A stretch of DNA of 35,855 nt from Candidatus Bathyarchaeota archaeon. Its GTDB lineage: Archaea > Thermoproteota > Bathyarchaeia > Bathyarchaeales > Bathyarchaeaceae. The notes under the pieces are model-generated. The model did no database searches. It saw only the letters and a list, made by a program, of their open reading frames with translations, and was not told where the DNA came from. The stretch spans positions 1 through 35,855 of the forward strand of contig CAVOMX010000021.1 in the NCBI GenBank assembly GCA_963697165.1. The letters are read 5' to 3'. This document shows positions 2,222-35,787 of the stretch, in pieces; position 1 is the stretch's first letter; each line of letters starts with the position of its first letter. Position numbers and translations under genes: made by a program.

Positions 2222-2263
2222 GCCCAGCTAGCTGAAATTTAACGTCTTTAGTTTTCTGGGCTT
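2220..2263 (+). promoter_or_regulatory. RNA hairpin directly after the leader ORF stop
   Basis: AAGCCCAG (2220-2227) pairs with CTGGGCTT (2256-2263). Inner stem AGCTGAA (2230-2236) pairs with TTTAGTT (2247-2253) using GU pairs. The hairpin ends just before ATG 2265. Confidence 0.55.
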
Positions 2264-2264
2264 C

Positions 2265-3533: not shown

Positions 3534-3535
3534 AA

Positions 3536-4573: not shown

Positions 4574-4588
4574 AGGAGATAGAAACTT

Positions 4589-7128: not shown

Positions 7129-7129
7129 G

Positions 7130-8870: not shown

Positions 8871-8873
8871 ACA

Positions 8874-10151: not shown

Positions 10152-11226
10152 TTCGATAGGAAAAGAATTCGTTGTAACATGTTTCGGCGAAAGCCATGGC
10201 AGATGCGTTGGAGCAGTCATAGATGGGTGTCCAGCCGGTCTTCCCCTTGCAGAGGAGGATATCCAGAAGGAACTGGACAAACGGTTACCCAAAAAAGAGG
10301 AGATTGTTTCTGCCCGAAGAGAAGAAGACGCTGTTGAACTTCTCTCGGGAACTTATGAGGGCTTCACAACTGGTGCTCCAATCTGCGTTTTAGTGTGGAA
10401 CAAGGAGGTTATTTCTGACGATTACGATGCAATAAGGCATACTCCCAGACCCGGACACGCAGACTATCCCGCCAAGATCAAGTATTTAGGCTTCAATGAT
10501 CATCGCGGCGGAGGACGATTCTCGGGTAGAATCACAGTTGCTTTTGTTATGGCTGGTGCTATTGCCAAGAAGCTGCTACAACTCGCAGACATCCAAGTTC
10601 TGGCATACGCCACTGAGATTGGAGGCGTCAAAATGCTTGCTGTTCCATCCCTTGAGGATGTTCGGGAGAAGACTTACGAAAGCGCGGTAAGGTGTCCAGA
10701 TTCGAAGGTTGCTGTGAATATGGAGGAAACGATTCTGAAGGCGAAGAGTGAGGGTGACAGTGTGGGTGGAATTGTTGAGTGTGTAGCTTCTAACGTTTTG
10801 GCGGGGGTCGGTGAGCCTCTTTTTGATTCGTTGGATGCTGAGCTTGCGAAGATGCTTTTTGATATTCCAGCTGTTAAGGGTGTCGAGTTTGGTGTTGGAT
10901 TTGAGGCTGCTCGGTTGAAGGGTTCAGAGAATAATGATTCCTATGTGATGAGGGATGGAGAAATCAGGGCAGTAACCAATAATGCTGGTGGTGTTTTGGG
11001 TGGTTTATCGTCTGGGATGCCTATTGTGGTTAGGGTGGCTGTAAAGCCGACGCCTTCGATTTCGAAAGAGCAGAGGACTGTGGACATGTTGAATATGGCG
11101 GATACGACAGTTCAAGTGAAAGGCAGACATGATTCATGTATTGTGCCAAAGGCTGTTCCGGTTGTTGAGGCTTCTGTTGCTATTGTTTTGGTTGATCAGC
11201 TGCTTAGAGCAGGTTTGACTACCTAA
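10135..11226 (+). CDS. aroC: Chorismate synthase
   Basis: FGESHG, RPGHAD, GGGRFSGR, IPAVKGVEFG, GRHDSC. A possible extra base near 11218 would extend the C-terminus (LPKVLG...) to 11275. Confidence 0.96.
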   Translation: MSLVSNSIGKEFVVTCFGESHGRCVGAVIDGCPAGLPLAEEDIQKELDKRLPKKEEIVSARREEDAVELLSGTYEGFTTGAPICVLVWNKEVISDDYDAIRHTPRPGHADYPAKIKYLGFNDHRGGGRFSGRITVAFVMAGAIAKKLLQLADIQVLAYATEIGGVKMLAVPSLEDVREKTYESAVRCPDSKVAVNMEETILKAKSEGDSVGGIVECVASNVLAGVGEPLFDSLDAELAKMLFDIPAVKGVEFGVGFEAARLKGSENNDSYVMRDGEIRAVTNNAGGVLGGLSSGMPIVVRVAVKPTPSISKEQRTVDMLNMADTTVQVKGRHDSCIVPKAVPVVEASVAIVLVDQLLRAGLTT

Positions 11227-11237
11227 AGTGTTGGGAG

Positions 11238-11513
11238 TTGAGGCTGTTGGAGAATATAGTGACATTACGGAATAAGATTGATGCAATCGATGCAAAGATT
11301 GTACTTCTGTTGAAAGATCGGATGGAAATCTGTAAAAGTATTGGGGCTGTCAAAGTAAAAAATGGTTTAGCGGTTAAGGATCATCGGAGAGAAGATGCAG
11401 TTTATTTGCATGTCATGGCAAAGGCGCTGGAGTCAGGTCTTGATCCACAAAAAGTAGAAGCAATCTTCAAAGATATAATTGCTTTGGGCGTCTTTGTTCA
11501 AGGTGCCGAATGA
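11238..11513 (+). CDS. Chorismate mutase (AroQ, type II)
   Basis: LRNKIDAIDAKIVLLLKDR...IGAVK...DHRRE pattern and operon context. Confidence 0.88.
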   Translation: MRLLENIVTLRNKIDAIDAKIVLLLKDRMEICKSIGAVKVKNGLAVKDHRREDAVYLHVMAKALESGLDPQKVEAIFKDIIALGVFVQGAE

Positions 11514-11587
11514 GAAGATTTAAAGCGGTATTACACAATTCTTGATGAGAAAAAATAGTCGTTCTTTCTCTCTTGGAGTTGAGTAAG

Positions 11588-12660
11588 ATGCTATATGAAA
11601 TAAGCGAAAAAGCGATGCAACTTGAGAATCAGGGAAAAGAGGATTATCAAGTTTAATCTAGGTGACCCTGACCTGCCGACTCCGCCTGAAATAGTTGAGG
11701 CTGCATACGTGGCTATGAAGCAAGGAAAAACGAAGTATTCTTCTGCGGCTGGCGAGAAGGAGCTGCGTGAGGAATTGGCTAGAGATTCATGGTGTGTCTG
11801 TGGACAATGTTGTGGTGACCACTGGTTCAAAGTGGGCAATTTTTTCTTGATGTTTCTGTTTTGAAGAAGGCGAGAATGTTGTTGTTCCGTCTCCTCACTG
11901 GACAAGTTACGAGTTAGCCGCAAAGAAGGTTGGGGCTGAAATTCGGTTTTTGAAGAGCGACCTTGCGTCTGACTGGAAGGTTGACGCTGATCAGCTTGAG
12001 GCATTGATTGATGAAGATACGCGGATGATAATACTGAATAGCCCTAACAATCCGACAAGCAAGGTTATTGATGACAAAACTTTCGGTAAGATTGTTCAGG
12101 TAGCACAAAACAAGGGCGTTACTGTTTTGTCGGATGAGGTTTACTCGGACATCAGTTTCGTGAAGACTAAATCTATTCTAGATTTTGGGGAAGATAATAT
12201 TCTGGTGAGCGGGTTTTCTAAATCGTTTTTGATGACTGGATGGAGAATCGGATACGCTGTTGTTGAGAAGGAGCTGGCTAAGCGAATGATTAAGCTGAAC
12301 CAGATAACCACAACCTGTGTTCCAGCGTTTATCCAGTACGGCGCTTTGAAGGGTTTGGAGTCTAGGAAAAAGATTGCGGATGATATCAGGACCGAGTTTA
12401 AAGTTAGGGCAGATGTTGCTTACTCTGTTCTTTCGAAGTCAAAGATGAAGTTTTCTCGACCTGATGCCCCATTTTATCTATTTCCTAAGGTTGATGGCTT
12501 GGATTCTGAACGTTTCGCCTTGGATCTTCTGGACAAGGGAGTTGCTGTGGCTCCAGGAACCGCATTTGGAGATTACCGAGAATACTTTAGGATAGCCTTA
12601 ACTGTTGGCGAGCAAAAGATTAGAGAGGGCTTGAAGAAGCTCTGTGAGGCTCTACCTTGA
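11588..12660 (+). CDS. Class I/II PLP aminotransferase (aspartate/aromatic); several frameshifts at 11630-11870
   Basis: ATG 11588 MLYEISEKA..., FNLGDPD, VVVTTGSKWA, PSPHWTSY, LNSPNNPT, SDEVY, GFSKSFLMTGWRIGY distributed over changing frames. Confidence 0.85.
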
Positions 12661-13526
12661 GAGTAGCGGTTATTGGCGCGGGAAAGATGGGTCGATGGTT
12701 CACAAGATTCTTTAAGACTGAAGGATTTTCGGTAGTTGTTTCTAGCCGAACCAAAAGCAAAGCAGAGGCGTTAAAGGCTGAGTTTGGGGTTGAGGTAGCC
12801 CGTAACAACGTGGAGGCTCTTGATGGCTCTGATTGGATTCTGTTGTGCATGTCCTTGGATGGCCTAGAGCCTGTCCTAAAGGAGATTGGCTCTCAAGTGC
12901 GCCCCGATCAGGTTGTTATGGACATCGGTTCTATCAAGGAGATTCCCGTGAATCTGCTGCACCAACATGTGGAACATGGAGTTACATTGGGAACACATCC
13001 TGTGTTTGGTCCCGGCGCAAGAAGCCTTGAGGGACAAAACTTTGTTCTTACTCCAGTAGGCACTGAGGAGAAACGGTTTGCTGACGAGTTCATGGGCTGG
13101 CTGGAGAAACATGGAGCGAAGGTGTCTGTTTTGTCGCCTAGAAAGCATGATGAGTTGATGTCTATGGTTTTGGGTTTTCCTCATTTTGTGGGCTTGGTTG
13201 CCGGTGACACGCTGATGGATAATGCTAACTTTGTTGATGCGAAAGCGGTGGGTGGAGCCAGCTATAAGCTCTTGTTGACTTTGGCTGAGGCTGTATCTTC
13301 TGAGGAGCCGCATTTCTATTCGAATCTTCACATGAGCTTGCCTGAGATGGAAAAGATTGAGGGCTTATTCTTGGAGAAAGTAGAAGAGTGGCTCAAGCTG
13401 GTGAAAAGTAAAGATTGTTCAGGTTTCTCTGGTAAGATGGGACATGTTAAGAAGCGATTGCAGGAATTAGACCCTGAATATGAGCGGTATTATAGGCTTA
13501 TGTATCGGCTTTTGGATGATTTCTAG
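12657..13526 (+). CDS. tyrA: Prephenate/arogenate dehydrogenase
   Basis: IGAGKMG, DIGSIK, HPVFGP, HDELMS. Confidence 0.92.
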   Translation: MRVAVIGAGKMGRWFTRFFKTEGFSVVVSSRTKSKAEALKAEFGVEVARNNVEALDGSDWILLCMSLDGLEPVLKEIGSQVRPDQVVMDIGSIKEIPVNLLHQHVEHGVTLGTHPVFGPGARSLEGQNFVLTPVGTEEKRFADEFMGWLEKHGAKVSVLSPRKHDELMSMVLGFPHFVGLVAGDTLMDNANFVDAKAVGGASYKLLLTLAEAVSSEEPHFYSNLHMSLPEMEKIEGLFLEKVEEWLKLVKSKDCSGFSGKMGHVKKRLQELDPEYERYYRLMYRLLDDF

Positions 13527-15181: not shown

Positions 15182-16318
15182 CTACTGATCGATTATTTGT
15201 TTTCTTGGTCTTTGCCTTTTTACAAAATCAGGCAACTTCGTTAACGATTTCTTTAACACTTCAATGCTATCCAAGTATTCTTGTATGTCAATGTGCTCAT
15301 TGGGTGTGTGATCTAGCCGCGAGTCTCCGGGTCCATACGTAACCACCGGAATCTTTAACACATTACCCAGAACATTCATGTCTCCTGTACCCGTCTTCCT
15401 TGAGAAAGAGGCATAATTTAGTGTTGTTTTTCTTATACCCCAAGCCAAAGCACGTACAATCACGGATCTGCGGTCAGCCTCAAATGCTTTGGCAACATCC
15501 ACCATCTCCACACTAACAGTAACCTTCGGGTTAGTCGACTTGTATCTGTCAATTTTCCGCTTTACCTCCTCAAACACCTGCTCGGGAGCAAGTTGAGGCG
15601 GAATCCGCAACTGAATAAGAATCTCACAATAAGACGGAATAAACGAAGCAGAACTGTTGCCACCCTTTATCCCAGTCAAACATGAAGTGATCGAATAGAA
15701 GCGGCTCTTCAGTTTCTCCTCCCGCATATGAAGCCTGTTAATCTGCCTCCAAAACTCCATTGCCTTCTCAATTGCATTTTCAAACAACCACGGAGCAGCA
15801 GAATGACCCGAAGGAGTCTCAACAGTAATCTTCACAGTCAAAATGCCCTTATAGCCAAAAACAACCTTCTCCAAGCCGCTTGGCTCACCAAAAATGGCGT
15901 AATCAGGCTGTATGCCTTCTTCGACAAAATGCTGTATGCCTTTTCCTGAGCCCTCCTCATCAACCACGCCAACAACAAGAATCTTACCCGGAAAGCCATC
16001 CTTAACAAACTTGGAAGCAGCAACAATCATTGCTGCTAAAGGGCCTTTCGCATCTACAGAGCCCCTACCATATAGTTGTCCATCCTCAACATGAACAGGA
16101 ATCTCTCCCTCAACAGTATCCATGTGCCCACACAGCAAAATAATAGGAGAGCCCTCACCAACCTCGCCTATAACGTTTCCAACTTTGTCCCTGTTAACAC
16201 GAAAACCAAGCTTCTTCATCTCATCAGCCAAGAACAGGGAAATCTCCTCTTCATTGCCCGAAGGACTGTAGATCTTTATCATACGCGTCAGCAAATCAAT
16301 CGCATAATCGTCGCTCAT
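15182..16318 (-). CDS. lysK: [LysW]-lysine/ornithine hydrolase (M20 family)
   Basis: YSPSGNE, GHMDTV, GRGSVDAKG, GEPSG, GTGDMN, YGPGDS..DHTPNEH. Start at ATG 16318 overlapping the lysJ stop. Confidence 0.9.
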   Translation of the reverse strand: MSDDYAIDLLTRMIKIYSPSGNEEEISLFLADEMKKLGFRVNRDKVGNVIGEVGEGSPIILLCGHMDTVEGEIPVHVEDGQLYGRGSVDAKGPLAAMIVAASKFVKDGFPGKILVVGVVDEEGSGKGIQHFVEEGIQPDYAIFGEPSGLEKVVFGYKGILTVKITVETPSGHSAAPWLFENAIEKAMEFWRQINRLHMREEKLKSRFYSITSCLTGIKGGNSSASFIPSYCEILIQLRIPPQLAPEQVFEEVKRKIDRYKSTNPKVTVSVEMVDVAKAFEADRRSVIVRALAWGIRKTTLNYASFSRKTGTGDMNVLGNVLKIPVVTYGPGDSRLDHTPNEHIDIQEYLDSIEVLKKSLTKLPDFVKRQRPRKQIIDQ

Positions 16319-17499
16319 TTGTTCTCCTTCTCCATAGCCGCATCCAGAACCTCTACTACAGTGTCGATTTGCTTCTTCTCGATAACCAGCGGCGGCAGAA
16401 ACCTTACAACGTTCCTTCCAGCATCCAAAACAAGAACACCCTTGTCCATGCAATCAAGCAGTATATTGTAAACGTCAAATCGCAACTCCATCCCAAGCAT
16501 GAGACCTAAACCGCGAACCTCCCTGACAATCTTATATTTCTCGGCTAGCGTCTCCAGCTTGCCCTTGAAATAGTTTCCATGGGTTGCAGCCCGCTCAGGA
16601 AGTTTCTCCTCAATTAGTACATCTATTGCAGCAGAAGCCGCGGCACAAACCAGCGGATTACCGCTAAACGTGCTAGAATGGTCTCCACGCTGAAAAGCCG
16701 TCATAACATCTTCTCTCGCAAACGTTGCTCCCATAGGCAAACCGCCCGCAACAGACTTTGCAAGACACATAATGTCAGGAACAACATTCCAGTGCTCGCA
16801 GGCGAAAACTTTTCCTGTGCGACCAAAACCAGTCTGCACCTCATCAAAGATTAGCAGAACATCTTTTTCGTCACAAATTTCTCGCAATCCAGGAAGAAAA
16901 TCGTCTGACGGAAGCAGAACTCCGCCCTCTCCCCTGATAGGCTCCACAAGAACCGCAGCGGTTTTGTCTGTAATAGCTGCTTTCATTTTTTCAAGATTGT
17001 TTGGAGGAACATGATTGAACCCCGGAACCAAAGGCATGAATGGATCACGATACTTCTTTTTCCAAGTTGCAGAAAGCGCACCCATAGTCTTACCATGAAA
17101 CGCACCCATCATGGCAACAATCTCAGGCTTACCCGAATATTTTCGAGCTAACTTGATGGCGCACTCGACTGATTCGGCGCCGCTGTTCGAAAGAAAAACC
17201 CTATCAAGTCCCTTAGGGGCTATCCCAATTAGCTTCTTTAGCATCTCTGATCGGGCATCGTTATAGAATGATGCGTGACAGGCGATCAGCTTTTCCACTT
17301 GCTTTTGTACCGCTTCAACAACTCTTGGGTGACAGTGACCAACAACAGCGACTCCATAGCTGCCTGTGCAGTCTATGTATTCGTTGCCGTTGATGTCCCA
17401 AACTAGGGCTCCCTTACCCCTTGTGATAACACGGTCTCTTTTGGCGAACGTGTTTGCCATAATTTTTTCTTCAAGATCAACTATTTCTTTTTCATTCAC
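16315..17499 (-). CDS. lysJ: [LysW]-aminoadipate/glutamate semialdehyde transaminase
   Basis: NSGAESVE, FHGKTMG, FDEVQTGFGRTG, LAKSVAGG, TFSGNP and cluster context. Confidence 0.9.
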   Translation of the reverse strand: MNEKEIVDLEEKIMANTFAKRDRVITRGKGALVWDINGNEYIDCTGSYGVAVVGHCHPRVVEAVQKQVEKLIACHASFYNDARSEMLKKLIGIAPKGLDRVFLSNSGAESVECAIKLARKYSGKPEIVAMMGAFHGKTMGALSATWKKKYRDPFMPLVPGFNHVPPNNLEKMKAAITDKTAAVLVEPIRGEGGVLLPSDDFLPGLREICDEKDVLLIFDEVQTGFGRTGKVFACEHWNVVPDIMCLAKSVAGGLPMGATFAREDVMTAFQRGDHSSTFSGNPLVCAAASAAIDVLIEEKLPERAATHGNYFKGKLETLAEKYKIVREVRGLGLMLGMELRFDVYNILLDCMDKGVLVLDAGRNVVRFLPPLVIEKKQIDTVVEVLDAAMEKENK

Positions 17500-18298
17500 T
17501 ACTTATCACCGTACCACTTTCATGCTTCAACGCAGAAGAAATTGGATTCTTCCTGACGCCCGAGCAGATAATCACTTCGTCAACACCACTTTTGAGTGCT
17601 TCCTGAGCCGCGTAAACTTTCGTTATCATGCCGCCTCCAATTTTTTTAAGCTTCTTTTCAACGTCAGAAGCAGACATGTTTGACACCAGTTTGCCATCCA
17701 ACATTAAGCCTTCCACGTCAGTTAACAGAACTAGCTTGTCAGCCTTCAAAGCTCCAGCGATGTTGGCTGCGGTTCGGTCAGCATCTACGTTGAGGGGCTC
17801 AAACTCTTCGCTCACCGCAACTGGAGAAACCAATGGCACATAACCGTTCTCAAGTAATAGCTTTAGCAGAGAGGTGTTAACTTGAGTAACCTTTCCTGTG
17901 TATCCGCCGTCGATTACCCGTTTTCTGCCTCGATCATCAACTACAATTAGCCGCTTCTTTCGTTCTGCCCGCAAAAGATACCCATCCAAACCTGAGAGGC
18001 CCACAACAGGTATGTTCTGCTTCTGAAGGGCGGAAACGAGTTTCTTGTTTATTTTGCCGGCCATAACCATTGTGAAGATTTCCATTGTCTCCTTGTCTGT
18101 GTATCTGCTGCGAAAACCAGTTGGCGAGAACACGAACTGCTGTTCCTTGCCTAGTTTTGAGGCTATTTCTGTGACGCCTTTTCCTCCGCCATGAACCAGA
18201 ACCAGTTGGTTACCTGAGAGAACATTCTTTATGTCTGATACTATTTCGAGTGGCACCTCTTTGAGGATGCTCCCACCAACCTTAACTACAATCAGCAT
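17492..18298 (-). CDS. lysZ: [LysW]-aminoadipate/glutamate kinase
   Basis: VVKVGG, VHGGG, SRYTD, GGYTGKV, LNVDADR, GGGM. Confidence 0.9.
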   Translation of the reverse strand: MLIVVKVGGSILKEVPLEIVSDIKNVLSGNQLVLVHGGGKGVTEIASKLGKEQQFVFSPTGFRSRYTDKETMEIFTMVMAGKINKKLVSALQKQNIPVVGLSGLDGYLLRAERKKRLIVVDDRGRKRVIDGGYTGKVTQVNTSLLKLLLENGYVPLVSPVAVSEEFEPLNVDADRTAANIAGALKADKLVLLTDVEGLMLDGKLVSNMSASDVEKKLKKIGGGMITKVYAAQEALKSGVDEVIICSGVRKNPISSALKHESGTVISSE

Positions 18299-18307
18299 CT
18301 TTTTTTA

Positions 18308-19360
18308 TCACATCGGATGATAACCTTGACATTCTAACCCAGTTGTTTCGTCTAAACCGAGCATAACATTCATACACTGAACCCCTTGACCAGAAGCGCC
18401 CCTCATGAGGTTGTCAATCGCAGAAAACGCGATTATCCTCTTTGTGCGTGGATCTAACTCGAAGCCGATGTCAACATAGTTTGTTCCCATCGTAATTTTG
18501 GGGTCTGGCAGCTGATATGGGCCTTTCTTGAATTTTACAAAGCGTATGAAATGTTCGTTTTGATACTGGGAACGGTAAAGTTTCCAGACGTCTTTTGTGT
18601 CTAGGGGCTTCTTTAGGAAAGCGTGAATTGTTGAAAGTATGCCCCTGATCATGTTTACTGCGTGGGGCGTGAAAGAGACGGTTACTTTTTCGTCTGTTAG
18701 CAGGTTAAGTTCCTGTTCGACCTCTGCTATGTGCCTGTGATCTGCTACTTTGTAGGGTCTTACGCCTCCAGCTCTTTCAGGATGATGAGACGTAACTGTG
18801 GGTTTTTGGCCTGCACCAGAAGAACCAATCTTCACGTCAGCAACTATCCTGTTTTTTTCGATTACGCCAGCCCTTACTAGAGGAGCCAATCCCAGAATCG
18901 TGGCTGTGGACATGCATCCTGGACAGCCTATCAGTTTTGCATTCTTTATTTCTTCGCGGTGAAGCTCAGGTAAACCGTAAACTGCTTCCTTTAGTAGTTC
19001 TGGATATGTGTGTTTCCATCCGTACCATTTGTCGTAATCTTCTGGGTTGTTCAGGCGGTAATCTGCGCTCATGTCGATAACTTTTACTCCTGTTTCGAGT
19101 AGCTGTGGAACTAGGTTCACTGATTTGCCGTGGGGCATCGCAGCAAACACTAAGTCGCAGTTGTCTGTAACTTGGGTGATGTTTGGGGGAGTAAATTTTA
19201 GTTGGGTTGCTGCTCTGAGGTTTGGGTGAACGGTGAAAATGTATTCGCCTGCGTTTGCGCGGGATGTTACTGTGGTCAATTCTACTTTGGGGTGGGGGAG
19301 TAACAGTCTTACAAGTTCTCCGCCTACGTATCCTGAACCGCCAATTACTCCAACTCTCAT
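18308..19360 (-). CDS. lysY: [LysW]-aminoadipyl/glutamyl-phosphate reductase
   Basis: GGSGYVG, DMSADYR, PGCMST, GSSGAG, HRHIAE, IDNLMRGASGQ. Confidence 0.9.
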   Translation of the reverse strand: MRVGVIGGSGYVGGELVRLLLPHPKVELTTVTSRANAGEYIFTVHPNLRAATQLKFTPPNITQVTDNCDLVFAAMPHGKSVNLVPQLLETGVKVIDMSADYRLNNPEDYDKWYGWKHTYPELLKEAVYGLPELHREEIKNAKLIGCPGCMSTATILGLAPLVRAGVIEKNRIVADVKIGSSGAGQKPTVTSHHPERAGGVRPYKVADHRHIAEVEQELNLLTDEKVTVSFTPHAVNMIRGILSTIHAFLKKPLDTKDVWKLYRSQYQNEHFIRFVKFKKGPYQLPDPKITMGTNYVDIGFELDPRTKRIIAFSAIDNLMRGASGQGVQCMNVMLGLDETTGLECQGYHPM

Positions 19361-19371
19361 TGTTATCTCCT

Positions 19372-20553
19372 CTATTCAGAATCGATTATGCTCTGGGCTC
19401 CTTTTAGCAGTGCCTCTGCCAAATCTATCCCAGCAGCCAATCGGGTTTGTTCCCAGAATTCGGGACAAGCATTAGTTTCGTGGAACATGATGTTGTGTTT
19501 GTTTTTTTCCATGTTCTCTTCGATAACTTCTTTAATGTTCAAATAAGCATCTTGGCTCTTGTAGTTTTCAAAAGCCTTTTCCAGCTTCTTGTTCCATTCT
19601 GGAAAGTTCGTCCGCTTAGTCTTGTCACGTTTAACGTTTTTCACACCACCAAATGAGGGCTCAAGCTTGTCGAACTCTCCTATTAGGTACTCGTCGTCAA
19701 TGACTTTGTTGTTGCCCACCTCAATCATGCCATCAAAAGCTAAAAGGTATGCTTTACTGTCTCCGCCCATGGCTGCGCCACATTTGGCTGAAATGTCTCT
19801 GATGTGTTGAGGTAAGTTTACTCCAATAACCATGTTGCCCAAGAAAGTGTTTGTCCTGAAGTCTTTAAATCCTGCTCGCGCCAATGCTGTGGGATAACAA
19901 TATGGTTTTTTGCCGTCCTCTTTGGTTACGATTATTCTCAAGTCGTAAAACCATTTCTGAACAAGATTTTGAGCGAGAACTCCCACAGGATTAATTATTG
20001 AGGGCTCAACTTCTCTAAGAATATTTAACAATTCTTCACGGTCTTTAGCGAGTTTAACACTTTTTCCATGAGTACCAGCGTCTGGTTTGACTACAATATT
20101 GTTGTCAAGTTCCTGCTGTAACAAATCGGCTATGTCCTCTTCGTTGTGTATTTCTCGTCCATCCAACGTTTTTTCTTTAGAATCAACTGGAACATAAACT
20201 GTGTCAGGAATCCTAATTCCGGCCTGCCAAAAATGAAGTAAGGACCTTAATTTGCTAAAGCAGGCATATTCTACACATTGAGGGTTTATCACATGTTTGC
20301 CGAAAGCTTCCAGAACATTGGCTGCGAAGAGCCTTCTGTTCTTGCTTTGCGCACGATTTAGCACTACTTTGATGTCTTTGAGAATGTTGGTGTAATCTTT
20401 TCCTTTGGTTCGGAGCTTGTAACCGTTTCCATCGAATCGAACAGCAACTTTGCGGAAAGGAATGTAAACCAAGTCTATTCCCATCTCTTCCGCAGTCATT
20501 TTGATTCCTTTTTCGTCGGTTTCGGAGCTCTCAAACAAAATTCCGATGCTCAT
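19372..20553 (-). CDS. lysX: Divergent LysX/ArgX-like ATP-grasp amino acid--LysW ligase
   Basis: Between lysW and lysY. NRAQS, INP...ACFSK, VVKP, DLRIIV, RTNT and ETN align by eye with LysX/RimK motifs. Unusually long at 393 aa. Confidence 0.72.
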   Translation of the reverse strand: MSIGILFESSETDEKGIKMTAEEMGIDLVYIPFRKVAVRFDGNGYKLRTKGKDYTNILKDIKVVLNRAQSKNRRLFAANVLEAFGKHVINPQCVEYACFSKLRSLLHFWQAGIRIPDTVYVPVDSKEKTLDGREIHNEEDIADLLQQELDNNIVVKPDAGTHGKSVKLAKDREELLNILREVEPSIINPVGVLAQNLVQKWFYDLRIIVTKEDGKKPYCYPTALARAGFKDFRTNTFLGNMVIGVNLPQHIRDISAKCGAAMGGDSKAYLLAFDGMIEVGNNKVIDDEYLIGEFDKLEPSFGGVKNVKRDKTKRTNFPEWNKKLEKAFENYKSQDAYLNIKEVIEENMEKNKHNIMFHETNACPEFWEQTRLAAGIDLAEALLKGAQSIIDSE

Positions 20554-20659
20554 CTCTTTTCTTTCAACCTCGCTTCAAGTGTTCTATTTTTCTATAGATG
20601 TTTCTTGGTCTACTTTTTTGTTTCGCATGTAGCTTATAAAAAGAAATAATGAGGGGAAC

Positions 20660-20845
20660 CTATTCGCCCCAGTCTTCCCCTTCAATTCCAAGTTCTTTAA
20701 GTTCGACGCAGTCGCCCTTGTTTTCAGTCACTTCTAGTTCAAGACCGCAGCTCGGGCAGCTCAGGATCTCTCCTTTCATGACATCCTCTGGGACTTCGAT
20801 TTCCGCGTCACAGTCGGGACAATTGGCTTTCTTCACAACTTGCAC
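20660..20845 (-). CDS. lysW: Amino-group carrier protein LysW
   Basis: CPDC...CPSC zinc ribbon and C-terminal EDWGE. True start may be GTG at 20836, with GAGGTG upstream. Confidence 0.95.
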   Translation of the reverse strand: MQVVKKANCPDCDAEIEVPEDVMKGEILSCPSCGLELEVTENKGDCVELKELGIEGEDWGE

Positions 20846-20885
20846 CTCTTTGGTTTAAAGTGAGCCATTATAACAAATATTGCTG

Positions 20886-21073
20886 TTTATAAGAATTTCG
20901 GAGTATTAGCTGATGGTTTTGCAGTTTTTCCAACTTATTATACGAAATTCGTAGGATTTGTGCTGTAACCGTCAAAAAAATCCAAACCTCGAACATCCGC
21001 CGTTATGGTGAGAAAATGGGAACTGAGATACGGAAATCGTTACAAATTTGCTGCAAATTGTTCAGAAATCGTT
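20886..21073. promoter_or_regulatory. Divergent lysW / Lrp control region with BRE-TATA and repeated semi-palindromic sites
   Basis: Minus-strand CGAAATT-CTTATAAA (TATA 20893-20886). TACGAAATTCGTA (20941-20953), TACGGAAATCGTT (21029-21041), TTCAGAAATCGTT (21061-21073). Confidence 0.5.
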
Positions 21074-21112
21074 AAATTTTTCCGCAACTATAGTATAATG
21101 AGAGTGAAGAAG

Positions 21113-21523
21113 ATGGACGATACAGACAAGACGATAATCGAAATTCTGAAGCATGATGGTCGCGCCACTTATAGCGATATAGGAAAAAGAATTGACTTGT
21201 CTGAGGGAGCTATTCGGAAGAGAATCAAAGCTCTTGTTGATTCAGGGGCAATAAGGCGATTCACCGTCAAGGTTGGACTTACGGAAGGCGCTGAAGCAAT
21301 CGCTTTGCTTTCGGTTGACCCCTCTTTGCCGACTTCGGAGGTTTCCCAAGAATTGAAGAAGTTCTCTAACGTTGAAACAGTCTACGAAATTACTGGTGAA
21401 TACGATATCGCCGTTACCATATCAGGATTGAACATAACCGAAGTCAATGAATGTCTCGAAAAAATACGACGCCTTAAGGGTGTCGCCAACACAAACACCA
21501 TGATCGTTTTACGTAGCTGGTAA
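21113..21523 (+). CDS. lysM: Lrp/AsnC family regulator, LysM-like
   Basis: MDDTDKTIIEILKHDGR...LSEGAIRKRI HTH and YEITGEYD RAM domain, inside the lysine cluster. Start set at ATG 21113; the track starts at 21005. Confidence 0.8.
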   Translation: MDDTDKTIIEILKHDGRATYSDIGKRIDLSEGAIRKRIKALVDSGAIRRFTVKVGLTEGAEAIALLSVDPSLPTSEVSQELKKFSNVETVYEITGEYDIAVTISGLNITEVNECLEKIRRLKGVANTNTMIVLRSW

Positions 21524-21677
21524 ACTTTCCATTGATGACCAATTACGGTTTCAGAAACAATGGTAATCTTTTCGTATTATACTCAGTCTATTTTTACATA
21601 AAGTATATATATTTGTGCGTTTTGTATTCTTCCGCAACCTAATTAACAAAACATTGTGAAAAGGAAGTCTCACCAAA

Positions 21678-22916
21678 TTGGAAAACGAATATGTTAACGA
21701 ACAGGGGCAAAAACTACTAGAACAACTGAAAAGGGAAGGAATTCTTCCAAGTCCCTACAACTTCGCTAACTACAAAGCGCCCTCTTTAGACGAATATATT
21801 GTTCACGACAGTACTCTACGAGAGGGAGAACAGACCCCCGGCGTCATCTTCAGTATAGAAGACAAACTGAAAATCGCCAAAAAACTAGATGAGGTTGGAG
21901 TACCACAGATAGAAGCAGGATTCCCGGCAGCCTCAGAAAAACAGAGAAAATGCGTCGACGCACTAGTTGACCTGAACTTAGATGCTCAATTATCCGCCTT
22001 TGCTCGAGCTAAAAAAGAGGACATTGATGCTGTAGCTGACAGCGGAGCCGACGGTATCGTAATGTCCCTATCCATTTCTCCTTACCATAGGAAATACAAA
22101 TTCAAGGACATGAGCAAAGAAACGTATCTGGAAAAGCTGGTTGAACACATCAGCTACGCAGAAAGCTATGGACTCTTCGTAATATACAGCGCAGAGGACA
22201 CAACCAGAGAAAACGACATAGACTTCCTGAAAAAAGCATACAAAACAGCAGAGGAAGCAGGAGCAGACAGAGCACGAGTAGTTGACACTCTGGGATGTGC
22301 AAGCCCCAACGGAATGGCATATCTTGTCAAAGAAATCAGAAAAGAAATAGACATACCCATCGAGGTGCACTGCCACAACGACCTTGGCTTAGCTCTGGCA
22401 AATTCCTTGGCATCCGTAGAAGCCGGCGCATCAACAGTATCAACATCCGTGAATGGCTTAGGCGAAAGAGCTGGAATAGCAATGACAGAAGAAATCATTC
22501 CTGCCCTGCACATATTGTATGGCGCAAGCTCCTTTGAGATGAGCCAACTAACTTCTTTAGCTAATCTTGTTCAAGAGATTTCTGGAATAAGCATGCCTCC
22601 TCACAAACCATTAACTGGCAATAACGTAAATGCCCACAGTTCAGGCATACACCAGCATGGCGTTCTCGTTAACCCGACGACATACGAGTTTTATCCGCCC
22701 AGAATGATGGGACAGAAACGAAAAATTTACATTGACGAATTGGGTGGTCGGCATGGAATCATATATGTGGCGAAAGAGCTTGGTCTAGAAATCTCTGACG
22801 AAACGGCAAAGAAGGTTCTTGAGAGAGTAAAGACAGCCTTTTCTTGTGAGGGACGGAGAAGTTCCTACACTCCCGAAGATATCAAACAACTAATAGATGA
22901 AATTGAAAAGAGTTGA
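21678..22916 (+). CDS. Homocitrate synthase (HCS/IPMS family)
   Basis: DSTLREGEQ, HCHNDLG, GLGERAG, AHSSGIH. No IPMS C-terminal regulatory domain. Lysine cluster context. Confidence 0.8.
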   Translation: MENEYVNEQGQKLLEQLKREGILPSPYNFANYKAPSLDEYIVHDSTLREGEQTPGVIFSIEDKLKIAKKLDEVGVPQIEAGFPAASEKQRKCVDALVDLNLDAQLSAFARAKKEDIDAVADSGADGIVMSLSISPYHRKYKFKDMSKETYLEKLVEHISYAESYGLFVIYSAEDTTRENDIDFLKKAYKTAEEAGADRARVVDTLGCASPNGMAYLVKEIRKEIDIPIEVHCHNDLGLALANSLASVEAGASTVSTSVNGLGERAGIAMTEEIIPALHILYGASSFEMSQLTSLANLVQEISGISMPPHKPLTGNNVNAHSSGIHQHGVLVNPTTYEFYPPRMMGQKRKIYIDELGGRHGIIYVAKELGLEISDETAKKVLERVKTAFSCEGRRSSYTPEDIKQLIDEIEKS

Positions 22917-24160
22917 AAACCATGGCATCTACAATAACTGAAAAAATCTTGGCAAACGCTTCACACCAAAAAGAAGTGGTTCCAGGAGATTTTGTTGTAG
23001 CAGATGTAAGCTATGCCATGGCCCACGATTCAACAGCACCCTTAGCAATCGAAAGCTTCAGCAAAATCGCGGATAAAGTCTTCGACAAAGACCGAGTGAT
23101 AATCGTATTCGACCATTTTTTCCCCGCACCATCAGTAGCCGGAGCGACACTGCACCAAAAATCAAGAACATTTGTAATGGAACAAAACCTTTCTGGATTC
23201 TTCACTAACGGAGTTTGTCACCAACTTTTAGTTGAAAAATTCATTTCCCCTGGAGACATCTTGGTTGGAGCTGACTCACACACATGCACTGAAGGAGCCT
23301 TGGGGGCATTCACTACTGGTTTGGGATCAACTGACATTGGAGGAGTTATGGCTACTGGAAAATGCTGGTTCAAAGTTCCTGAAAGCCTGAAATTCAATAT
23401 AACTGGCTCAACAAAGAAGGGCGTCTACGCCAAGGACGTTATCCTAAGTATTGTCGGAGATGTTGGAGCTGCTGGTGCACTCTACAAGGCTTGCGAATTT
23501 ACTGGCGACTACGTGAAGAACGCAAGTGTTGCATCGCGTTTGACTTTGTGTAACATGGCTATTGAGATGGGCGGCAAAAACGGCATAATTGAAGCTGACC
23601 AAAAAACCCTTAATTTTCTGACAGGACGAACCGGAACAATCTTCAAGAGCGACAAAGATGCAGTCTACGAAGAAGAATTCGAGATCGCGGTTGAAGATAT
23701 TGAGCCGCAAGTTGCGCTTCCTCCAGTAGTAGACAACGTGAAGCCCGTTTCTTCAATTGAAGGAAAAACAATAGATCAAGCATTCTTGGGAACATGCACC
23801 AACGGGCGCCTCGAAGACATTGAAGTTGCCACAAAAATATTGAAAGGCAAAAAAATTGCCCGAAACGTCAGGTTCATAGTTACTCCTGCGTCACAAGACA
23901 TCTACTTTGCAGCCCTCGAGAAAGGGTACCTGCAAGACCTAATTAATGCGGGTGCAGCAGTTTGCAACCCCACCTGTGGACCTTGTGTAGGTAGACACGG
24001 GGGAGTGCTGGCTGAGGGTGAGGTTTGTATTTCAAGCCAGAACCGAAACTTCACTGGACGAATGGGTGCTCCTAAAGCGGAAATTATTCTAGCTTCTCCT
24101 GCAACGGTTGCGGCGTCAGCTTTAGCTGGAAAGATTGTTGATCCGAGGGACTATATGTGA
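22913..24160 (+). CDS. Homoaconitase / isopropylmalate isomerase family large subunit
   Basis: GADSHTCT, LCNMAIEMG, GTCTNGR, CGPCVG, NRNFTGRMG. Confidence 0.88.
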   Translation: MKTMASTITEKILANASHQKEVVPGDFVVADVSYAMAHDSTAPLAIESFSKIADKVFDKDRVIIVFDHFFPAPSVAGATLHQKSRTFVMEQNLSGFFTNGVCHQLLVEKFISPGDILVGADSHTCTEGALGAFTTGLGSTDIGGVMATGKCWFKVPESLKFNITGSTKKGVYAKDVILSIVGDVGAAGALYKACEFTGDYVKNASVASRLTLCNMAIEMGGKNGIIEADQKTLNFLTGRTGTIFKSDKDAVYEEEFEIAVEDIEPQVALPPVVDNVKPVSSIEGKTIDQAFLGTCTNGRLEDIEVATKILKGKKIARNVRFIVTPASQDIYFAALEKGYLQDLINAGAAVCNPTCGPCVGRHGGVLAEGEVCISSQNRNFTGRMGAPKAEIILASPATVAASALAGKIVDPRDYM

Positions 24161-24642
24161 GAGTTTGGAAGTTTGGAGACGACATAAACACTGACGTTAT
24201 CACGCCAGGTAGATATACTGTAACAACAGACAAAAAACGATTAGGCGAAATAGCATTCATAGAGTACAGACCAGAATTTGGCAAAGGCGTAAAAGAAGGA
24301 GATGTGATCGTTGCAGGAAACAACTTCGGTTGTGGTTCCTCTAGGGAGCACTCTCCTGTTGCGATAAAGGCTGCTGGAATAAGTGCTGTTATCGCTAAAT
24401 CGTTTGCTCGTATCTTCTTTAGAAATTCCATAAACATTGGGCTTCCACTGTTTGTTTCTGAGGACGCTGACAAAATTGATGACGGCGACGAGGTTGAAAT
24501 AAACATCAAAACTGGTGAGATTCGCGACAAAACTAAAGCCATAGTTCTCAAGGCGAAGCCGCTGCCAGAGTTTATGCAAAAGATTGTGAATAAGGGTGGC
24601 TTAGTAAACTTTCTGCGAGGCGACGGCTATGACAACATATAA
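24157..24642 (+). CDS. Homoaconitase / isopropylmalate isomerase family small subunit
   Basis: DDINTDVITP, NFGCGSSREH, SFARIFFRN. Confidence 0.88.
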   Translation: MRVWKFGDDINTDVITPGRYTVTTDKKRLGEIAFIEYRPEFGKGVKEGDVIVAGNNFGCGSSREHSPVAIKAAGISAVIAKSFARIFFRNSINIGLPLFVSEDADKIDDGDEVEINIKTGEIRDKTKAIVLKAKPLPEFMQKIVNKGGLVNFLRGDGYDNI

Positions 24643-25624
24643 TCTAGCGGTCATTCCTGGTCCTGGAATTGGGGCTGAGGTTGTCACTGAAGCGATTAGG
24701 TTACTGGAGAGCACAGGCTTAAATTTTGATTGCAGATACATGGAGATTGGCTACGAAGTTTTCAAAAGAACGGGTAATCCCGTTCCTGATGATGTCTTGG
24801 CGGAGATACGGAAAACTCAGGCTTGCCTGTTTGGGGCTACAACTACTCCTGTTGGTGTTCCGGGCTACAAAAGCGCGATTATAACGTTGAGAACAGCCTT
24901 GGGGTTATATGCTAATGTTAGACCCGCAAAGAGTTATCCTATTCAGAAAAGTATGAAAGATGTTGATTTGGTGATTGTGCGGGAAAACACGGAAGGCATG
25001 TACAGCGGCATGGAGTTTGAGTTGCCCGATTCTGCATTTACCATCAGGGTGATTACAAGAAAGGCGACTGAACGGATTAGCCGCTTTGCTTTTGATTTGG
25101 CAATGAAGCGGCGCAAAAAGGTGACTGTTGTTACTAAGGCGAACGTGTTGCGTAAGTCGGATGGTCTCTTTCTTGATGTTGCACGCAAAGTTGCGGAAGA
25201 TTATCCTGACGTGGAAGTCGAGGAGGCTTTTGTTGACGTTACAGCAATGAGACTCATTCTTAAACCCAATATATTCGATGTGATTGTTACTTCCAACCTT
25301 TTCGGTGATATTCTTTCTGATGAGGCTGCGGGTTTAGTTGGAGGGTTAGGGTTAGCTCCCAGCGCGAACATAGGAGCAGATTATGCCCTATTTGAGCCTG
25401 TTCACGGTTCTGCACCAGCGCTTGCAGGAAGGAAGATAGCGAATCCTATGGCGGCGATGCTTGCCTCTAAGATGATGCTGGATTATCTCGGCGAAAACAG
25501 GTGGGCTGAGCGCATCGAAAACGCTATCGTAAACGTTTTGAAAGAAGGAAAAGTTTTGACTCCAGACCTTGGAGGCTCTTCGTCCACAACGCAGGTTACA
25601 GATGCAGTAATAGCTGCAGTGTAA
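24629..25624 (+). CDS. Homoisocitrate / isopropylmalate dehydrogenase family
   Basis: YANVRP, IVRENTEGMY, KANVL, NLFGDILSD, FEPVHGSAP. Confidence 0.87.
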   Translation: MTTYNLAVIPGPGIGAEVVTEAIRLLESTGLNFDCRYMEIGYEVFKRTGNPVPDDVLAEIRKTQACLFGATTTPVGVPGYKSAIITLRTALGLYANVRPAKSYPIQKSMKDVDLVIVRENTEGMYSGMEFELPDSAFTIRVITRKATERISRFAFDLAMKRRKKVTVVTKANVLRKSDGLFLDVARKVAEDYPDVEVEEAFVDVTAMRLILKPNIFDVIVTSNLFGDILSDEAAGLVGGLGLAPSANIGADYALFEPVHGSAPALAGRKIANPMAAMLASKMMLDYLGENRWAERIENAIVNVLKEGKVLTPDLGGSSSTTQVTDAVIAAV

Positions 25625-32451: not shown

Positions 32452-32790
32452 ATGAATCTGAAGATGGTTTTGGGCTCGATTCTAGTTGCTGTTCTTTTCT
32501 TTTTGGGAATTATTTTTGCTTTCGCTTCGGTGTATGCGGCTTCAAGATTAGTCGTTGCTGGCTTATTTTTTGTTGTTGGTTTTGGGATCGTATATTACAT
32601 TACTAGAAAACCTAAGGTGAGTATTCAGAGATTGGAGTTTTCGGGTCAGATGAAAGCTGTTGCTTTGAAATGTCCAAACTGTTCGGCTTCTATAAATTCA
32701 GATACTATAAAGATTGTTTCTGGAGTGCCATATGCTACTTGTGATTATTGTGGTCATACTTTTGAGGTAGTTGAGGAGCCAAAATGGTGA
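32452..32790 (+). CDS. 2-TM membrane protein with C-terminal zinc ribbon
   Basis: Two hydrophobic helices, then CPNC...CDYC. Overlaps the next gene start. Confidence 0.75.
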   Translation: MNLKMVLGSILVAVLFFLGIIFAFASVYAASRLVVAGLFFVVGFGIVYYITRKPKVSIQRLEFSGQMKAVALKCPNCSASINSDTIKIVSGVPYATCDYCGHTFEVVEEPKW

Positions 32791-34422
32791 AGTCGTCTGC
32801 TGTTCTGGTTTTGTTGCTTGTTGGGTTAGTGTGTATTTCATTTGTTCCCGGAGTTGTTGCTCAGAGGCAATATTTTTTTGGGCAGGAATGGGCGCAAGTT
32901 TGGATTAATTCGGATGGTTCTATTGATCTTTTTTATAATGTTAGCTTAACTCTTGATTTTGGTCAGGAAATTAATTGGATAAGTATTGGTCAACCTAAAG
33001 GTGATTTTTCTATCGGTTCTGCTGTGGATCAGTTTGGGAATACGTTAGAAACAGCTGATATCAGTTCTGGAAGTGACTATAAGGTTAGGGTTAATCTTGA
33101 TTCTCCTTTACAAGCTGGACAGACTGTTTGGTTTACTTTGGTTACGAATGTAGCTCACATGATTTATGAGGATGAAACTAATCCGGGAAATGATGGAATG
33201 CAATTTACTTTGTCTTGGTTTTCAGAAGCAGTTATTGAAGATGCGCGGGTGCTTATTGTTTTGCCTCCTGGAGTCTCTGAGAGTGAAGTGAAAACAGGGT
33301 CAATCTTTTGGAGTAATGTCCAGTATGAGGATGATAGGTTAGCGGTTTATTGGGAAAAGCAAAATCTTTTGCCAGATGAAAGATTTACGGTTGGAGTTTC
33401 CTATCCAAAACAGGAAGGATGGACCTCTTTTACTGACGGATCTGATGGTTTAGGGAATTTTTTTGGAGACTTTATTTGTTTGGCCTATTATTGGTGTTTG
33501 GAGTCATTGGGATTGTGTTGTTTTTGTTTTATTTGTTTCTCGTAAGCGACCCTATACAAAACCTACCATTGGGATTGAATGTCTTGGAATAGTAAGGGGG
33601 TTAACTGCTGTAGAGGCTTCTTATCTTTTGGATTTAAAGCCGTCTCAGATTGTCACTGAGATTTTGTATAGTGTTCTTAAGAAGAGGGCTGTTTGGGTTG
33701 AGAACACTTCTCCTTCTCTTAGGTTTAGGATACTAAAGCCTTTCCTTGACAAAACGGGAACAGCAGAGAATCCGTTGAGATATTATGAGATTGATTTTCT
33801 TAATTCTATTAATGATGACGGGTCTCTTGATGAAGAGAAGCTTGCATCAACGATTATGTTTGTTCAATCTACTGTTGAGGAAAAGTTGAAGGGATATTGT
33901 AGACGTGATACAGTAGATTATTATCGAAAGATTGTTGAGAAGGCTTGGGGGCAGGTTGAAGGTGCTGGAACAGCAGAATTAGCCTCTAAAGCTTATGATG
34001 AACAGTTGCTTTGGTTGTTCTTGGATCCGAAGGTTTCAGATCGAACTCAAACTGTGTTTAGTAATAGAGTTTTTGAGCCTGATCCTTTTTGGTTTTGGTA
34101 TTGGTATTCTTATAGGTATTATTCTCCAAATCCTACTTACAAGCCTAATATTGGGGTTCCGGCTCAAGGGCAAAAGCCTCCTACAATTCCTGGTGCAGAT
34201 TTTGCTAATAATATTGCTACTGCGATAGAAAAGAGCGCTAACAATTTTGTTGTTAACATGGAAAAATTTGCTAATTCTATAGTTCCTATGGGTCCTAAGC
34301 AGAAATCATCTAAGCAGCCGGTGCAACAAAAAGCCAAGTGTGTATGTGCTTGTGCTACGTGTGCATGTGCCTGTGCTTGTGTTTCATGTGCCTGTGCATG
34401 TGCTGGTGGAGGAGTTGGGTAG
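32784..34422 (+). CDS. Membrane protein (DUF2207-like architecture) with Cys-Ala-rich C-terminal tail; frameshift(s) at 33460-33545
   Basis: Signal peptide, INSDGSID extracellular domain, T-rich TM region where the frame changes, GLTAVEASYLL cytoplasmic domain, ends CVCACATCACACACVSCACACAGGGVG*. Confidence 0.7.
34339..34404 (+). repeat. TGTGCN hexamer-like repeats encoding the (Cys-Ala)n tract
   Basis: Repeated TGT-GCN codon pairs with varying third bases; 10 Cys codons. Confidence 0.8.
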
Positions 34423-34438
34423 TAAAGGAGGTTTGATT

Positions 34439-35787
34439 ATGGGTTTTGTACGTAAGATTTTTCGGAGATCAAAAATTCCTCAAGGAAGATTCACCTATCG
34501 AGGGGAAGGCAATTTTAGGGGTTTAGCTCTTCAGCTTCGGGTTGAACCTGACGGTAATGGGCTTTTGATTATTAATGCGAACACTGTTTTGTTTTTGAAC
34601 GAGACTTCTACAGCTTATGCGTATTTTTTGATGCAGGGTTTGACAACTGAAGAGGTTATCTCTAAGATTAGAGGTATTTTTCGGGTGAAAGAGAGACAGG
34701 CAAGGGCTGATTATGAAAAGTTGGTTTATACTGTTAGTACATTGGCGCAGACTGAAGAAGTGGATCCTATATCCTATCTTGATTTAAAGAAGATTGAGCC
34801 TTTTAGTCAAGAATTTTCTGCTCCATTACGTGTTGATATGTCGCTTACTTTTAGATGTCAGAATAGTTGTGTTCATTGTTATGCTGGGGGACCGCATGAA
34901 ACTGATGAACTTACGTACTGATCAATGGAAGCAGGTTATTGATCATCTTTATCGGGTTGGTGTTTTTATTTTGACTTTTACGGGTGGAGAGCCAACCTTA
35001 AGGGAGGATTTGCCTGAACTTCTTAGTTATGGGCAAAAAAAGGGTTTAGTGACAGGTCTAATTACCAATGGAAGAAGTTTAACTGATAAAAAATATGTTA
35101 GAATTCTCGAGGAGTCTGGGCTTGATTTTGTTCAGGTAACTCTTGAGTCTCATAAGCCAGAGATTCATGATTTGATGACGGGTATTAAGGGAAGCTGGAA
35201 CGGAGACGGTAGCAGGAATTAAGAATCTGATTCCAACAAAAATTTACACAACTACAAACTCGACATTAAGTAAGCATAATGCGGAGGATTTTCTTGATAC
35301 TGTAGATTTTATTAAGGAATTGGGGGTTGCTGCTTTTGGATGTAACAGTTTGATTTATTCTGGAAAAGCAAAAGATGTTATTGAAGATTTTGTTTTTCCT
35401 CTTGAAGATTTGAAGATTCTTTTGCCAAAGGTTCAGGATAAAGCAGCTAAGCTGGGACTAAAATTTTTGTGGTATACTCCAACCCAATATTGTAAGTTTA
35501 ATCCAATCAAGCTTGGTTTGGGTATAAAATCGTGTTCAGCTGCAATGATTAACATGTGTGTTGGACCAAACGGGGATGTGTATCCTTGCCAGAGCTACTT
35601 TGAAAGTTTAGGTAACATCTTGAAGAATGATTGGAAAAGCATTTGGAATCATCCATTAGCGGTTAGAATTAGAAATAGAGAATATGTAGAACCAAAATGT
35701 AAGGAATGCCCCCAACTGCAGATCTGTGGAGGAGGATGCCCTCTTGAACTCCAAAAGAAGAATCATATTTGTGCTGCTATGGGATAG
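34439..35787 (+). CDS. Radical SAM/SPASM protein with N-terminal PqqD/RRE-like extension; frameshifts near 34915 and 35200
   Basis: AAGGAGGT before ATG 34439. CQNSCVHC, FTGGEPTLR, ITNG, and SPASM CSAA...GDVYPC...GNI...CKEC...CGGGC. The N-terminal LIINANTVLFLNETS plus helices resembles an RRE. Confidence 0.85.

Follow-up and report, generated by a model that had tools for sequence, protein, structure and literature searches.

We analysed a 35,855-nt stretch of DNA from a Candidatus Bathyarchaeota archaeon (GenBank assembly GCA_963697165.1, contig CAVOMX010000021.1, forward strand), called the window below; the genome to which it belongs, as contig C21, measures 2.0 Mb and has close relatives bearing the label Bathyarchaeia, and coordinates are window positions unless another locus is named. 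Near its 3′-end lies a cassette of three co-oriented genes, coding for a small zinc-ribbon membrane protein (open reading frame, ORF, 1), a large single-pass membrane protein with a Cys-rich tail (gene 2) and a radical S-adenosylmethionine (SAM) enzyme (gene 3) that carries a recognition element (RRE) for peptides that are made on the ribosome and modified after translation (RiPPs) and a SPASM domain (Table 1). The layout given in the original prediction was borne out: genes 1 and 2 overlap by 7 nt, and 16 nt separate genes 2 and 3. The terminal KW codons of the zinc-ribbon gene (32781–32790) overlap the start codon of the membrane-protein gene, which suggests translational coupling.

Table 1. 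Features of the cassette and of related loci (window positions unless a locus is named)
Feature	Position	Strand	Remark
Small zinc-ribbon membrane protein gene (ORF1)	32452–32790	+	112 aa
Large single-pass membrane protein gene (gene 2)	32784–34422	+	stop TAG 34420–34422
Juxtamembrane YxxPx(hydrophobic) segment, Y255–P258	33553–33570	+	predicted RRE recognition sequence
10-Cys (Cys-Xaa)n tail	34339–34419	+	three blocks, end AGGGVG; proposed modified core
RRE-radical SAM-SPASM enzyme gene (gene 3)	34439–35787	+	ATG at 34439
RRE	34517–34738	+	enzyme residues ~27–100
CxxxCxxC radical SAM cluster motif	34856–34879	+	in 72/72 aligned rows
SPASM region	35491–35772	+	PF13186 above cut-off, E=3e-11
Tail-less membrane-protein paralog	L060 10920–11924; L084 10876–11757; L152 6669–7664
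Stand-alone Cys-less enzyme paralog	L110 2134–3420		Bathyarchaeia-class genome that also has a normal cassette

The three genes form a real, conserved and tightly linked system that has no family name. In 301 genomes of the class, a profile of the membrane protein without its tail matched 59 genomes and a profile of the RRE matched 60; both were found in 58 genomes, and in all 58 the two genes were adjacent. The exceptions were a copy ending at a contig end (G167), a short remnant (G198), an extra copy that is a Cys-less paralog of the enzyme (G127) and G254 (E=8.7e-6). Among GTDB loci, an enzyme gene of this clade was present in 78 of 80 (in 3 of the 78 as the Cys-less paralog only), and both loci without it have the enzyme elsewhere in the genome. 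In metagenome loci the enzyme was seen in 71/80, and in 55 of the 57 with at least 1.5 kb of downstream sequence. A strong membrane-protein match occurred in 22 of 151 Anaerolineae-type genomes, all 22 of which have the RRE (17 nearby on the same contig); in two Anaerolineae-type genomes the RRE was found but no strong membrane match. The co-occurrence and synteny anticipated in the original prediction were thus observed, and tailed proteins were rarely found without the enzyme (it accompanies them in 58 of the 59 genomes). The counts include related genomes and so are not independent, but the genes are linked in both archaea and bacteria and in differing surroundings. The cassette occurs in 12 of 24 same-genus genomes in varied neighbourhoods, which indicates that its genes travel together. 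Roughly one in five of the sampled genomes of the Bathyarchaeia class has it, and it is also present in Chloroflexi and other lineages. The zinc-ribbon gene family was present in 75 of the 80 GTDB loci, with four of the five misses at contig edges or in masked DNA. Its product has a hydrophobic N-terminal half with two predicted transmembrane (TM) helices followed by a zinc ribbon (CxxC at residues 74–77 and 97–100) and a conserved C-terminal EEPKW; no named family matched it.

In the window, gene 2 contains a single frame break (33453–33525) and gene 3 contains two (~34915 and ~35200). A second, overlapping copy of the cassette lies on contig C2 of the same genome (94.8% identical), with gene 2 intact (543 aa) and gene 3 broken, but at a different place. 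Housekeeping genes of the window are split as well (shikimate dehydrogenase at 7130/7467, an aminotransferase near 11950). The extra bases at 33464–33487 were absent from contigs of close relatives in 4/4 runs, and the extra bases at 34916 and 35202 in 2/4 and 3/4 runs, respectively. Given the intact C2 gene 2, the split housekeeping genes and the relatives lacking the extra bases, the breaks are likely to be assembly errors; recent decay is the less favoured alternative. We have therefore used intact relatives, mainly G011, for the analysis (gene 2 78–84% and gene 3 87–90% identical; enzyme length 447–448 aa). Both ends of the contig are duplicated elsewhere, 179–6277 on C8 (98.2%) and 29604–35855 on C2 (94.8%), with scattered indels of 1–2 nt; this duplication is the result of strain mixture combined with assembly errors. 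In the C2 copy (L017 6171–7934) the gene after the enzyme codes for a 587-aa protein with an N-terminal rubredoxin-like CxxC...CxxC domain.

The tail of the membrane protein, read in the 3′ frame to the TAG stop, contains the ten Cys residues claimed for it. Of the 21324 six-frame ORFs of at least 40 aa in the genome, only the two copies of gene 2 contain the string CACAC. The tail-free profile matched 650 representative clusters; among the best 150 of these 650, the tail was terminal in 85 of the 88 representatives of 500+ aa, the other three having a variant ending, a 3-Cys remnant and a premature stop, respectively. Among the same 150, P0306 and P0353 have other endings and 45 have no tail, these being mostly short fragments that were not individually checked. 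The count of 120/120 tails obtained with a tail-containing query is a biased one. The matches carry the source labels Bathyarchaeia, Anaerolineae, other Chloroflexi, Methanomassiliicoccales, Korarchaeota, Methanocella, Zixiibacteriota and Cloacimonadota. Tails have 5–11 Cys, those of the representatives 5–10; the final CACACA block is 98–100% invariant and its Ala spacers 93–99%. The tail is the most invariant part of the protein. The last six codons were spelled in 65 different ways among 81 tails in 80 loci, which means that selection acts on the protein; a codon-level comparison of the tails also led us to reject DNA slippage as the origin of the repeat. By the Kyte-Doolittle scale the stretch 34339–34410 matches a TM segment in hydrophobicity and so may lie against the membrane.

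No separate short precursor peptide was found near the genes, either among the ORFs of the window, as had been stated earlier, or among neighbour families of the 80 loci. A 32-codon Cys-rich ORF at 34338–34436 was rejected as a shadow frame of the tail, since it needs TGT codons, yet 129 of 243 terminal Cys codons are TGC.

The CxxxCxxC motif and SPASM domain claimed for gene 3 are both present, and so is its N-terminal extension, which measures 139 residues from the start to CxxxCxxC rather than the ~120 given before. This extension contains the RRE that the original prediction had made a test of its reading: it matches the RRE of the lasso-peptide protein TfuB1 (6JX3; profile E=1.5e-5), the Pfam family PqqD was matched by the N-terminal domains of 36 of 42 family members, and the structure model has three strands and three helices. 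In the SPASM region Cys 351, 365, 383, 420, 423, 429 and 433 are invariant in 72/72 rows, C373 is present in 67/72 and the Cys of the terminal motif in 31/72. The best solved relative is the sactisynthase SkfB (6EFN), with a profile E of 8e-29 across RRE and barrel and a Foldseek E of 1.5e-19. Of the features expected from an RRE-dependent radical SAM/SPASM RiPP maturase, the system thus has CxxxCxxC, SPASM and RRE and lacks the short separate precursor.

The enzyme reached no NCBIfam cut-off. Scores fell far below those required for the AhbC/AhbD/NirJ heme-enzyme models (148 bits for NirJ2, 134 for AhbD and then 122, cut-offs 500–650), for the StsB family NF045574 (85 bits, cut-off 625) and for mycofactocin MftC TIGR03962 (116 bits, cut-off 265), a family marked by a precursor with Val-Tyr at its C-terminus, which our system does not show; TIGR04463 (CrpC) was absent from the best 25 NCBIfam matches listed. 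We built a quick tree of catalytic cores from 12 enzymes of the (CA)n type described here, 4 of a sister (CHSA)n type (see below), 7 AhbD-model matches, 6 MftC and 4 other enzymes of this genome. The CA- and CHSA-type enzymes together formed a clade apart from the AhbD-model, MftC and other same-genome enzymes, with moderate support (84–88 in the Shimodaira-Hasegawa-like approximate likelihood ratio test). The AhbD-model comparators lie just under their cut-off (447–488 bits) and have no RRE score; no StsB-family member above cut-off was found in the 121 genomes searched, so the tree contains no StsB. The enzyme groups apart from the Ahb-like enzymes in this tree and has an RRE, so that the refuting outcome named in the original prediction did not occur.

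At the six active-site positions of Precord et al. (PMC10288494) the enzyme has Y, T, I, T, Q and S, the third being variable. Identity amounts to 3/6 with StsB and SkfB, 2/6 with four Ahb-like enzymes, 1/6 with PqqE and 0/6 with SuiB, CteB and MftC. These letters lean weakly towards Cys-to-Cα chemistry.

According to the structure model of the gene 2 product (mean pLDDT, the predicted score in the local distance difference test, 78), a signal helix (4–24) is followed by a beta-sandwich ectodomain (29–208), a TM helix (231–250), an unstructured stretch (248–264), a folded cytosolic domain (273–438), two helices (468–497) and the disordered tail; pLDDT is <50 at 248–264 and 500–543. With a signal helix and one TM helix followed by basic residues, the ectodomain is predicted to lie outside and the tail in the cytosol. 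Both domains are conserved and folded. The ectodomain resembles ribophorin I and the sandwich at the N-terminus of M1 aminopeptidases (Z 16.6, root-mean-square deviation, rmsd, 3.0, 180 aligned), and the cytosolic domain, which has three invariant Trp, gave a weak fold match to Vps74/GOLPH3 (Z 6.3–6.4, rmsd 4.4–4.7, 156–163 aligned). For DUF2207 (PF09972/PF20990), 3 of 50 members matched at E ~1e-3 and none at the Pfam cut-off; the probability from comparison of hidden Markov models was 76% globally (E=2.8e-6) and 26% locally, and the Atlas comparison gave 0.88. Thus, the membrane protein appears to be a distant relative of DUF2207/TIGR04222 rather than a member by cut-off. It shares with DUF2207 the ectodomain-TM-cytosolic plan, a [YF]xxP motif after the TM helix and a Gly-rich end in G-x-R, but has no extra TM hairpin in the C-terminal domain, and its Gly tail contains an inserted Cys block. 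The tails of ordinary DUF2207 proteins of the class are Gly runs, with no Cys in 13 Gly-tailed rows. In three Chloroflexi loci a tail-less paralog of ~330 aa, with several TM helices and the cytosolic domain, adjoins an active enzyme. At L154 (990–4409) a 1139-aa kinase/ATPase-like protein, encoded directly 5′ of the enzyme, carries the last 150 residues of the membrane protein and the Cys-Ala tail; this may be a real fusion or a mis-assembly.

We modelled the complex of the G011 enzyme with residues 252–543 of the membrane protein. The complex score was 0.63, against 0.01 for the best control; runs agreed in at least 50% of contacts, and partner pLDDT was at least 73. The mark used for this score is passed by 116 of 157 solved pairs and by 2 of 215 mismatched pairs. 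In the model it is the YxxP segment, not the tail, that occupies the RRE cleft: confident contacts run from residues 252–266 along RRE strand 49–57, with Tyr255 against helix 78–98. The RRE is thus predicted to grip this segment just inside the membrane in the classic leader mode. YxxP is the recognition motif described for lasso RREs, in the same cleft. Here the motif lies in an unstructured stretch of the monomer model and occurs in 111 of 120 placed representatives. Covariation between the two proteins, computed on 95 pairs (effective number 43, hence underpowered), showed no enrichment of predicted interface pairs: the mean z was 0.2, 15% of random sets scored as high, and the result is evidence neither way.

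The strongest indirect case for the tail as substrate comes from a sister family. We had taken 24 weak membrane-protein matches in Anaerolineae-type genomes as tail-less, enzyme-less controls and had to reject them as such, for the 10 loci examined all encode a protein with the same architecture and YxxP motif but a (CHSA)n tail; the RRE of this system had fallen below the E-value limit of the Anaerolineae-type survey. A related RRE-radical SAM/SPASM enzyme lies beside the CHSA protein in 8 of the 10 loci. In the tree the CHSA-type enzymes lie together with the CA-type, and active-site positions 4–5 are T,Q in the CA-type and S,S in the CHSA-type, so that subclades track tail type. Leader-like motif and enzyme are kept while the Cys pattern is exchanged, which follows the leader/core logic of RiPPs. 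The CHSA protein scores 39.1 bits on TIGR04222 (cut-off 43). CHSA cassettes (L144 5798–7495; also L140, L142, L145 and L148) add a gene for a 387-aa coiled-coil protein and, where seen, a different zinc-ribbon membrane gene 3′ of the enzyme.

Two further gene families accompany the cassette in some lineages. Cys-less paralogs of the enzyme were found in 38/54 bacterial and 0/26 archaeal GTDB loci, with others in one Bathyarchaeia-class genome and at L149 and L150. Those of the bacterial loci retain RRE and barrel and have CxxxCxxC in 0 of 32 rows; in a quick tree the Cys-less paralogs require three origins, one of which has a very long branch. The second family, a class I methyltransferase, shows the same counts in GTDB loci (38/54 bacterial, 0/26 archaeal). 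A third subfamily of the cassette, of Methanomassiliicoccales type, has it in 21 of 30 loci, and at L153, L154 and L156, which have no adjacent membrane gene, it still accompanies the enzyme; it was not found in the genome of the window (best match 44 bits).

Several known systems share parts of this design. Among them are the hairpin sactipeptide systems StsB/StsA and BlaB/BlaA (Precord et al. 2023, PMC10288494), also dependent on RRE-radical SAM/SPASM enzymes. Their precursors have [WY]xxP leaders and CxC(xC) cores, and StsA receives three Cys-to-Gly sactionines. The common features are a [YW]xxP-type motif, a CxC core, a Gly-rich end and the three active-site letters shared with StsB. Unlike them, the putative precursor here is a membrane protein of 540 aa with ~260 residues between the leader-like motif and the first Cys, the core has 5–11 Cys with Ala spacers, and the RRE is fused to the enzyme. 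The supplement of PMC10288494 lists three C-terminal fragments of the tail among ‘Other Uncharacterized’ short precursors (group 40), with no link to a membrane protein in the part available. CrpC/CrpA of Methanococcus voltae (TIGR04463; Dieter et al. 2026, PMC13692751) likewise has an archaeal RRE-radical SAM/SPASM enzyme, which makes thioethers in the Cys-rich C-terminal part of a whole protein and so sets a precedent for a whole-protein substrate. In contrast to the protein described here, CrpA is a 29-kDa protein with an N-terminal leader-like region, CxxQ/D repeats and ranthionines; our substrate would be membrane-anchored, has no Asp/Gln acceptors and has a Cys content under the screen thresholds of PMC13692751. 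We found no conserved acidic or Gln residue in the tail, and no Cys-x-x-(x)-Asp/Glu/Gln acceptor motif of the ranthipeptide/CrpA type. SkfB, of the sporulation killing factor (active-site letters Y, T, F, S, Q, L), differs in having a twitch domain instead of a full SPASM domain, a short peptide substrate and only 21% identity. TIGR04222 membrane proteins linked to multinuclear non-heme iron oxidative (MNIO) enzymes end in Ser/Gly-rich tails with Cys, for which a role as substrates of RiPP enzymes has been proposed (PMC12452194); there the enzyme class is another, the linkage is loose and the tails are predicted to be periplasmic. No recurring MNIO (DUF692) family was recognised among our neighbour clusters, in which no scan aimed at DUF692 was made.

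Taken together, these data support the earlier reading that the radical SAM enzyme modifies the tail of the large membrane protein; the thioether chemistry itself is what we infer. The enzyme would treat the membrane protein as a giant membrane-anchored RiPP precursor: docked at the membrane by its RRE on the YxxP segment, it would cleave SAM and abstract hydrogen from alpha carbons of Ala or Gly in the tail, and thioethers would close between tail Cys and alpha carbons of the same tail, nested in a two-residue register like that of StsA. No peptidase or exporter is seen to recur, so the tail would stay on the protein, and the modified tail, any free Cys and the zinc-ribbon partner might make up a metal- or redox-handling module at the inner face of the membrane. 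That the tail is the modified site seems to us very probable. Thioether cross-linking of a tail that stays attached is somewhat favoured, while a Cys-to-Cα bond in the StsA-like register has rather less than an even chance. A product that remains on the protein and forms a metal- or redox-handling module with the zinc-ribbon partner is a tentative proposal, and such a biological role is speculation.

A number of observations weigh against this reading. Genes 2 and 3 of the window are broken as assembled. The highest NCBIfam scores of the enzyme are those for NirJ2 (148 bits) and AhbD (134), each with a cut-off of 500, and StsB is at only 85, and the active-site profile discriminates weakly because the four AhbD-model matches already share 2/6 letters. 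The tail has only three terminal Gly, and its spacing does not follow the sactipeptide core CxCxCx4GxGxG of StsA. The complex model has no confident contact between tail and active site, the modelled chain started at residue 252 so that the bound segment is a free end, and the pass may reflect likeness to solved RRE-leader complexes. A [YF]xxP motif stands at the aligned place in 12 of 17 ordinary Gly-tailed DUF2207 loci, and hence its conservation does not by itself indicate RRE binding; an ancestral juxtamembrane motif could have been co-opted as recognition sequence. Finally, the invariant C351 may occupy the fourth position on the first auxiliary cluster, as happens in SuiB and anSME. CteB and CrpC have an open site on this cluster, and in SkfB the upstream Cys is present yet the site is open.

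A fully ligated first auxiliary cluster would suit a chemistry other than thioether formation, i.e. epimerisation of alternate residues, Cys oxidation, desaturation or preparation of a site for the methyltransferase. The strict alternation and the near-invariant Ala would also fit a backbone-directed reaction. The linkage of the methyltransferase in bacteria and in the third subfamily is a further point in favour of other chemistry. However, among solved structures a sactisynthase is the nearest, the periodic Cys persist in both tail types whereas the spacers differ, and the methyltransferase is missing from the archaeal GTDB loci and the window's genome; we regard such a modification as possible but not likely.

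CxC and CHSA repeats are good ligands. An unmodified tail could thus bind metal or Fe-S clusters, with the membrane protein only anchoring an enzyme whose true target would be some lipid or small molecule, or else the cytosolic domain, which is rich in aromatic residues and has the three invariant Trp. Docking of the juxtamembrane segment only, as predicted by the model, and retention of Cys-less pseudo-enzymes with intact RRE, which points to a non-catalytic use of docking, speak for this explanation. Still, the tail is the most invariant part of the protein, Gly tails of ordinary DUF2207 relatives have no Cys, and enzyme subclades track tail type, which makes it rather improbable. Less probable again is release of the modified tail as a free RiPP: the linker before the tail is flexible (500–543) and the core resembles StsA/BlaA cores, but the ectodomain and cytosolic domain are conserved and folded, and no peptidase or exporter family is common to the 80 loci, a signal peptidase-like one being confined to 8 loci that are related. 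The releasable peptide offered as an option in the original prediction therefore finds no support, and we retain modification of an attached tail as the preferred reading.

The remaining genes of the window (635–13526 and 15182–25624) belong to ordinary amino-acid metabolism and include an aromatic pathway operon, LysW-type genes with a RimK-like ligase and an isopropylmalate/homocitrate-type operon.

We found no description of the three-gene system in the freely readable literature searched, nor a published case of radical SAM thioethers on the cytosolic tail of a membrane protein. Tested cases on whole proteins are few (CrpA, and QHNDH as cited in PMC13692751). By its sequence the system appears to be a new variant of RRE-radical SAM protein maturation. 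It is conceivable, though doubtful at present, that it represents a widespread class of membrane-tethered RiPP-like proteins, in which a DUF2207-derived, single-pass, receptor-like protein would have a folded domain of 260 residues between leader and core and exchangeable (CA)n or (CHSA)n cores, each with its own radical SAM enzyme for maturation. In some lineages a dead paralog that retains the RRE and a methyltransferase would modulate this maturation, and the protein would act with the zinc-ribbon partner in transmembrane sensing or handling of metal or redox state. The cassette has been missed or mis-listed by mining for short precursors; it offers an internal sequence predicted to serve for recognition, and a way into the role of DUF2207-like proteins. 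If the proposed modification is true, radical SAM chemistry of small peptides would extend to a whole membrane protein.

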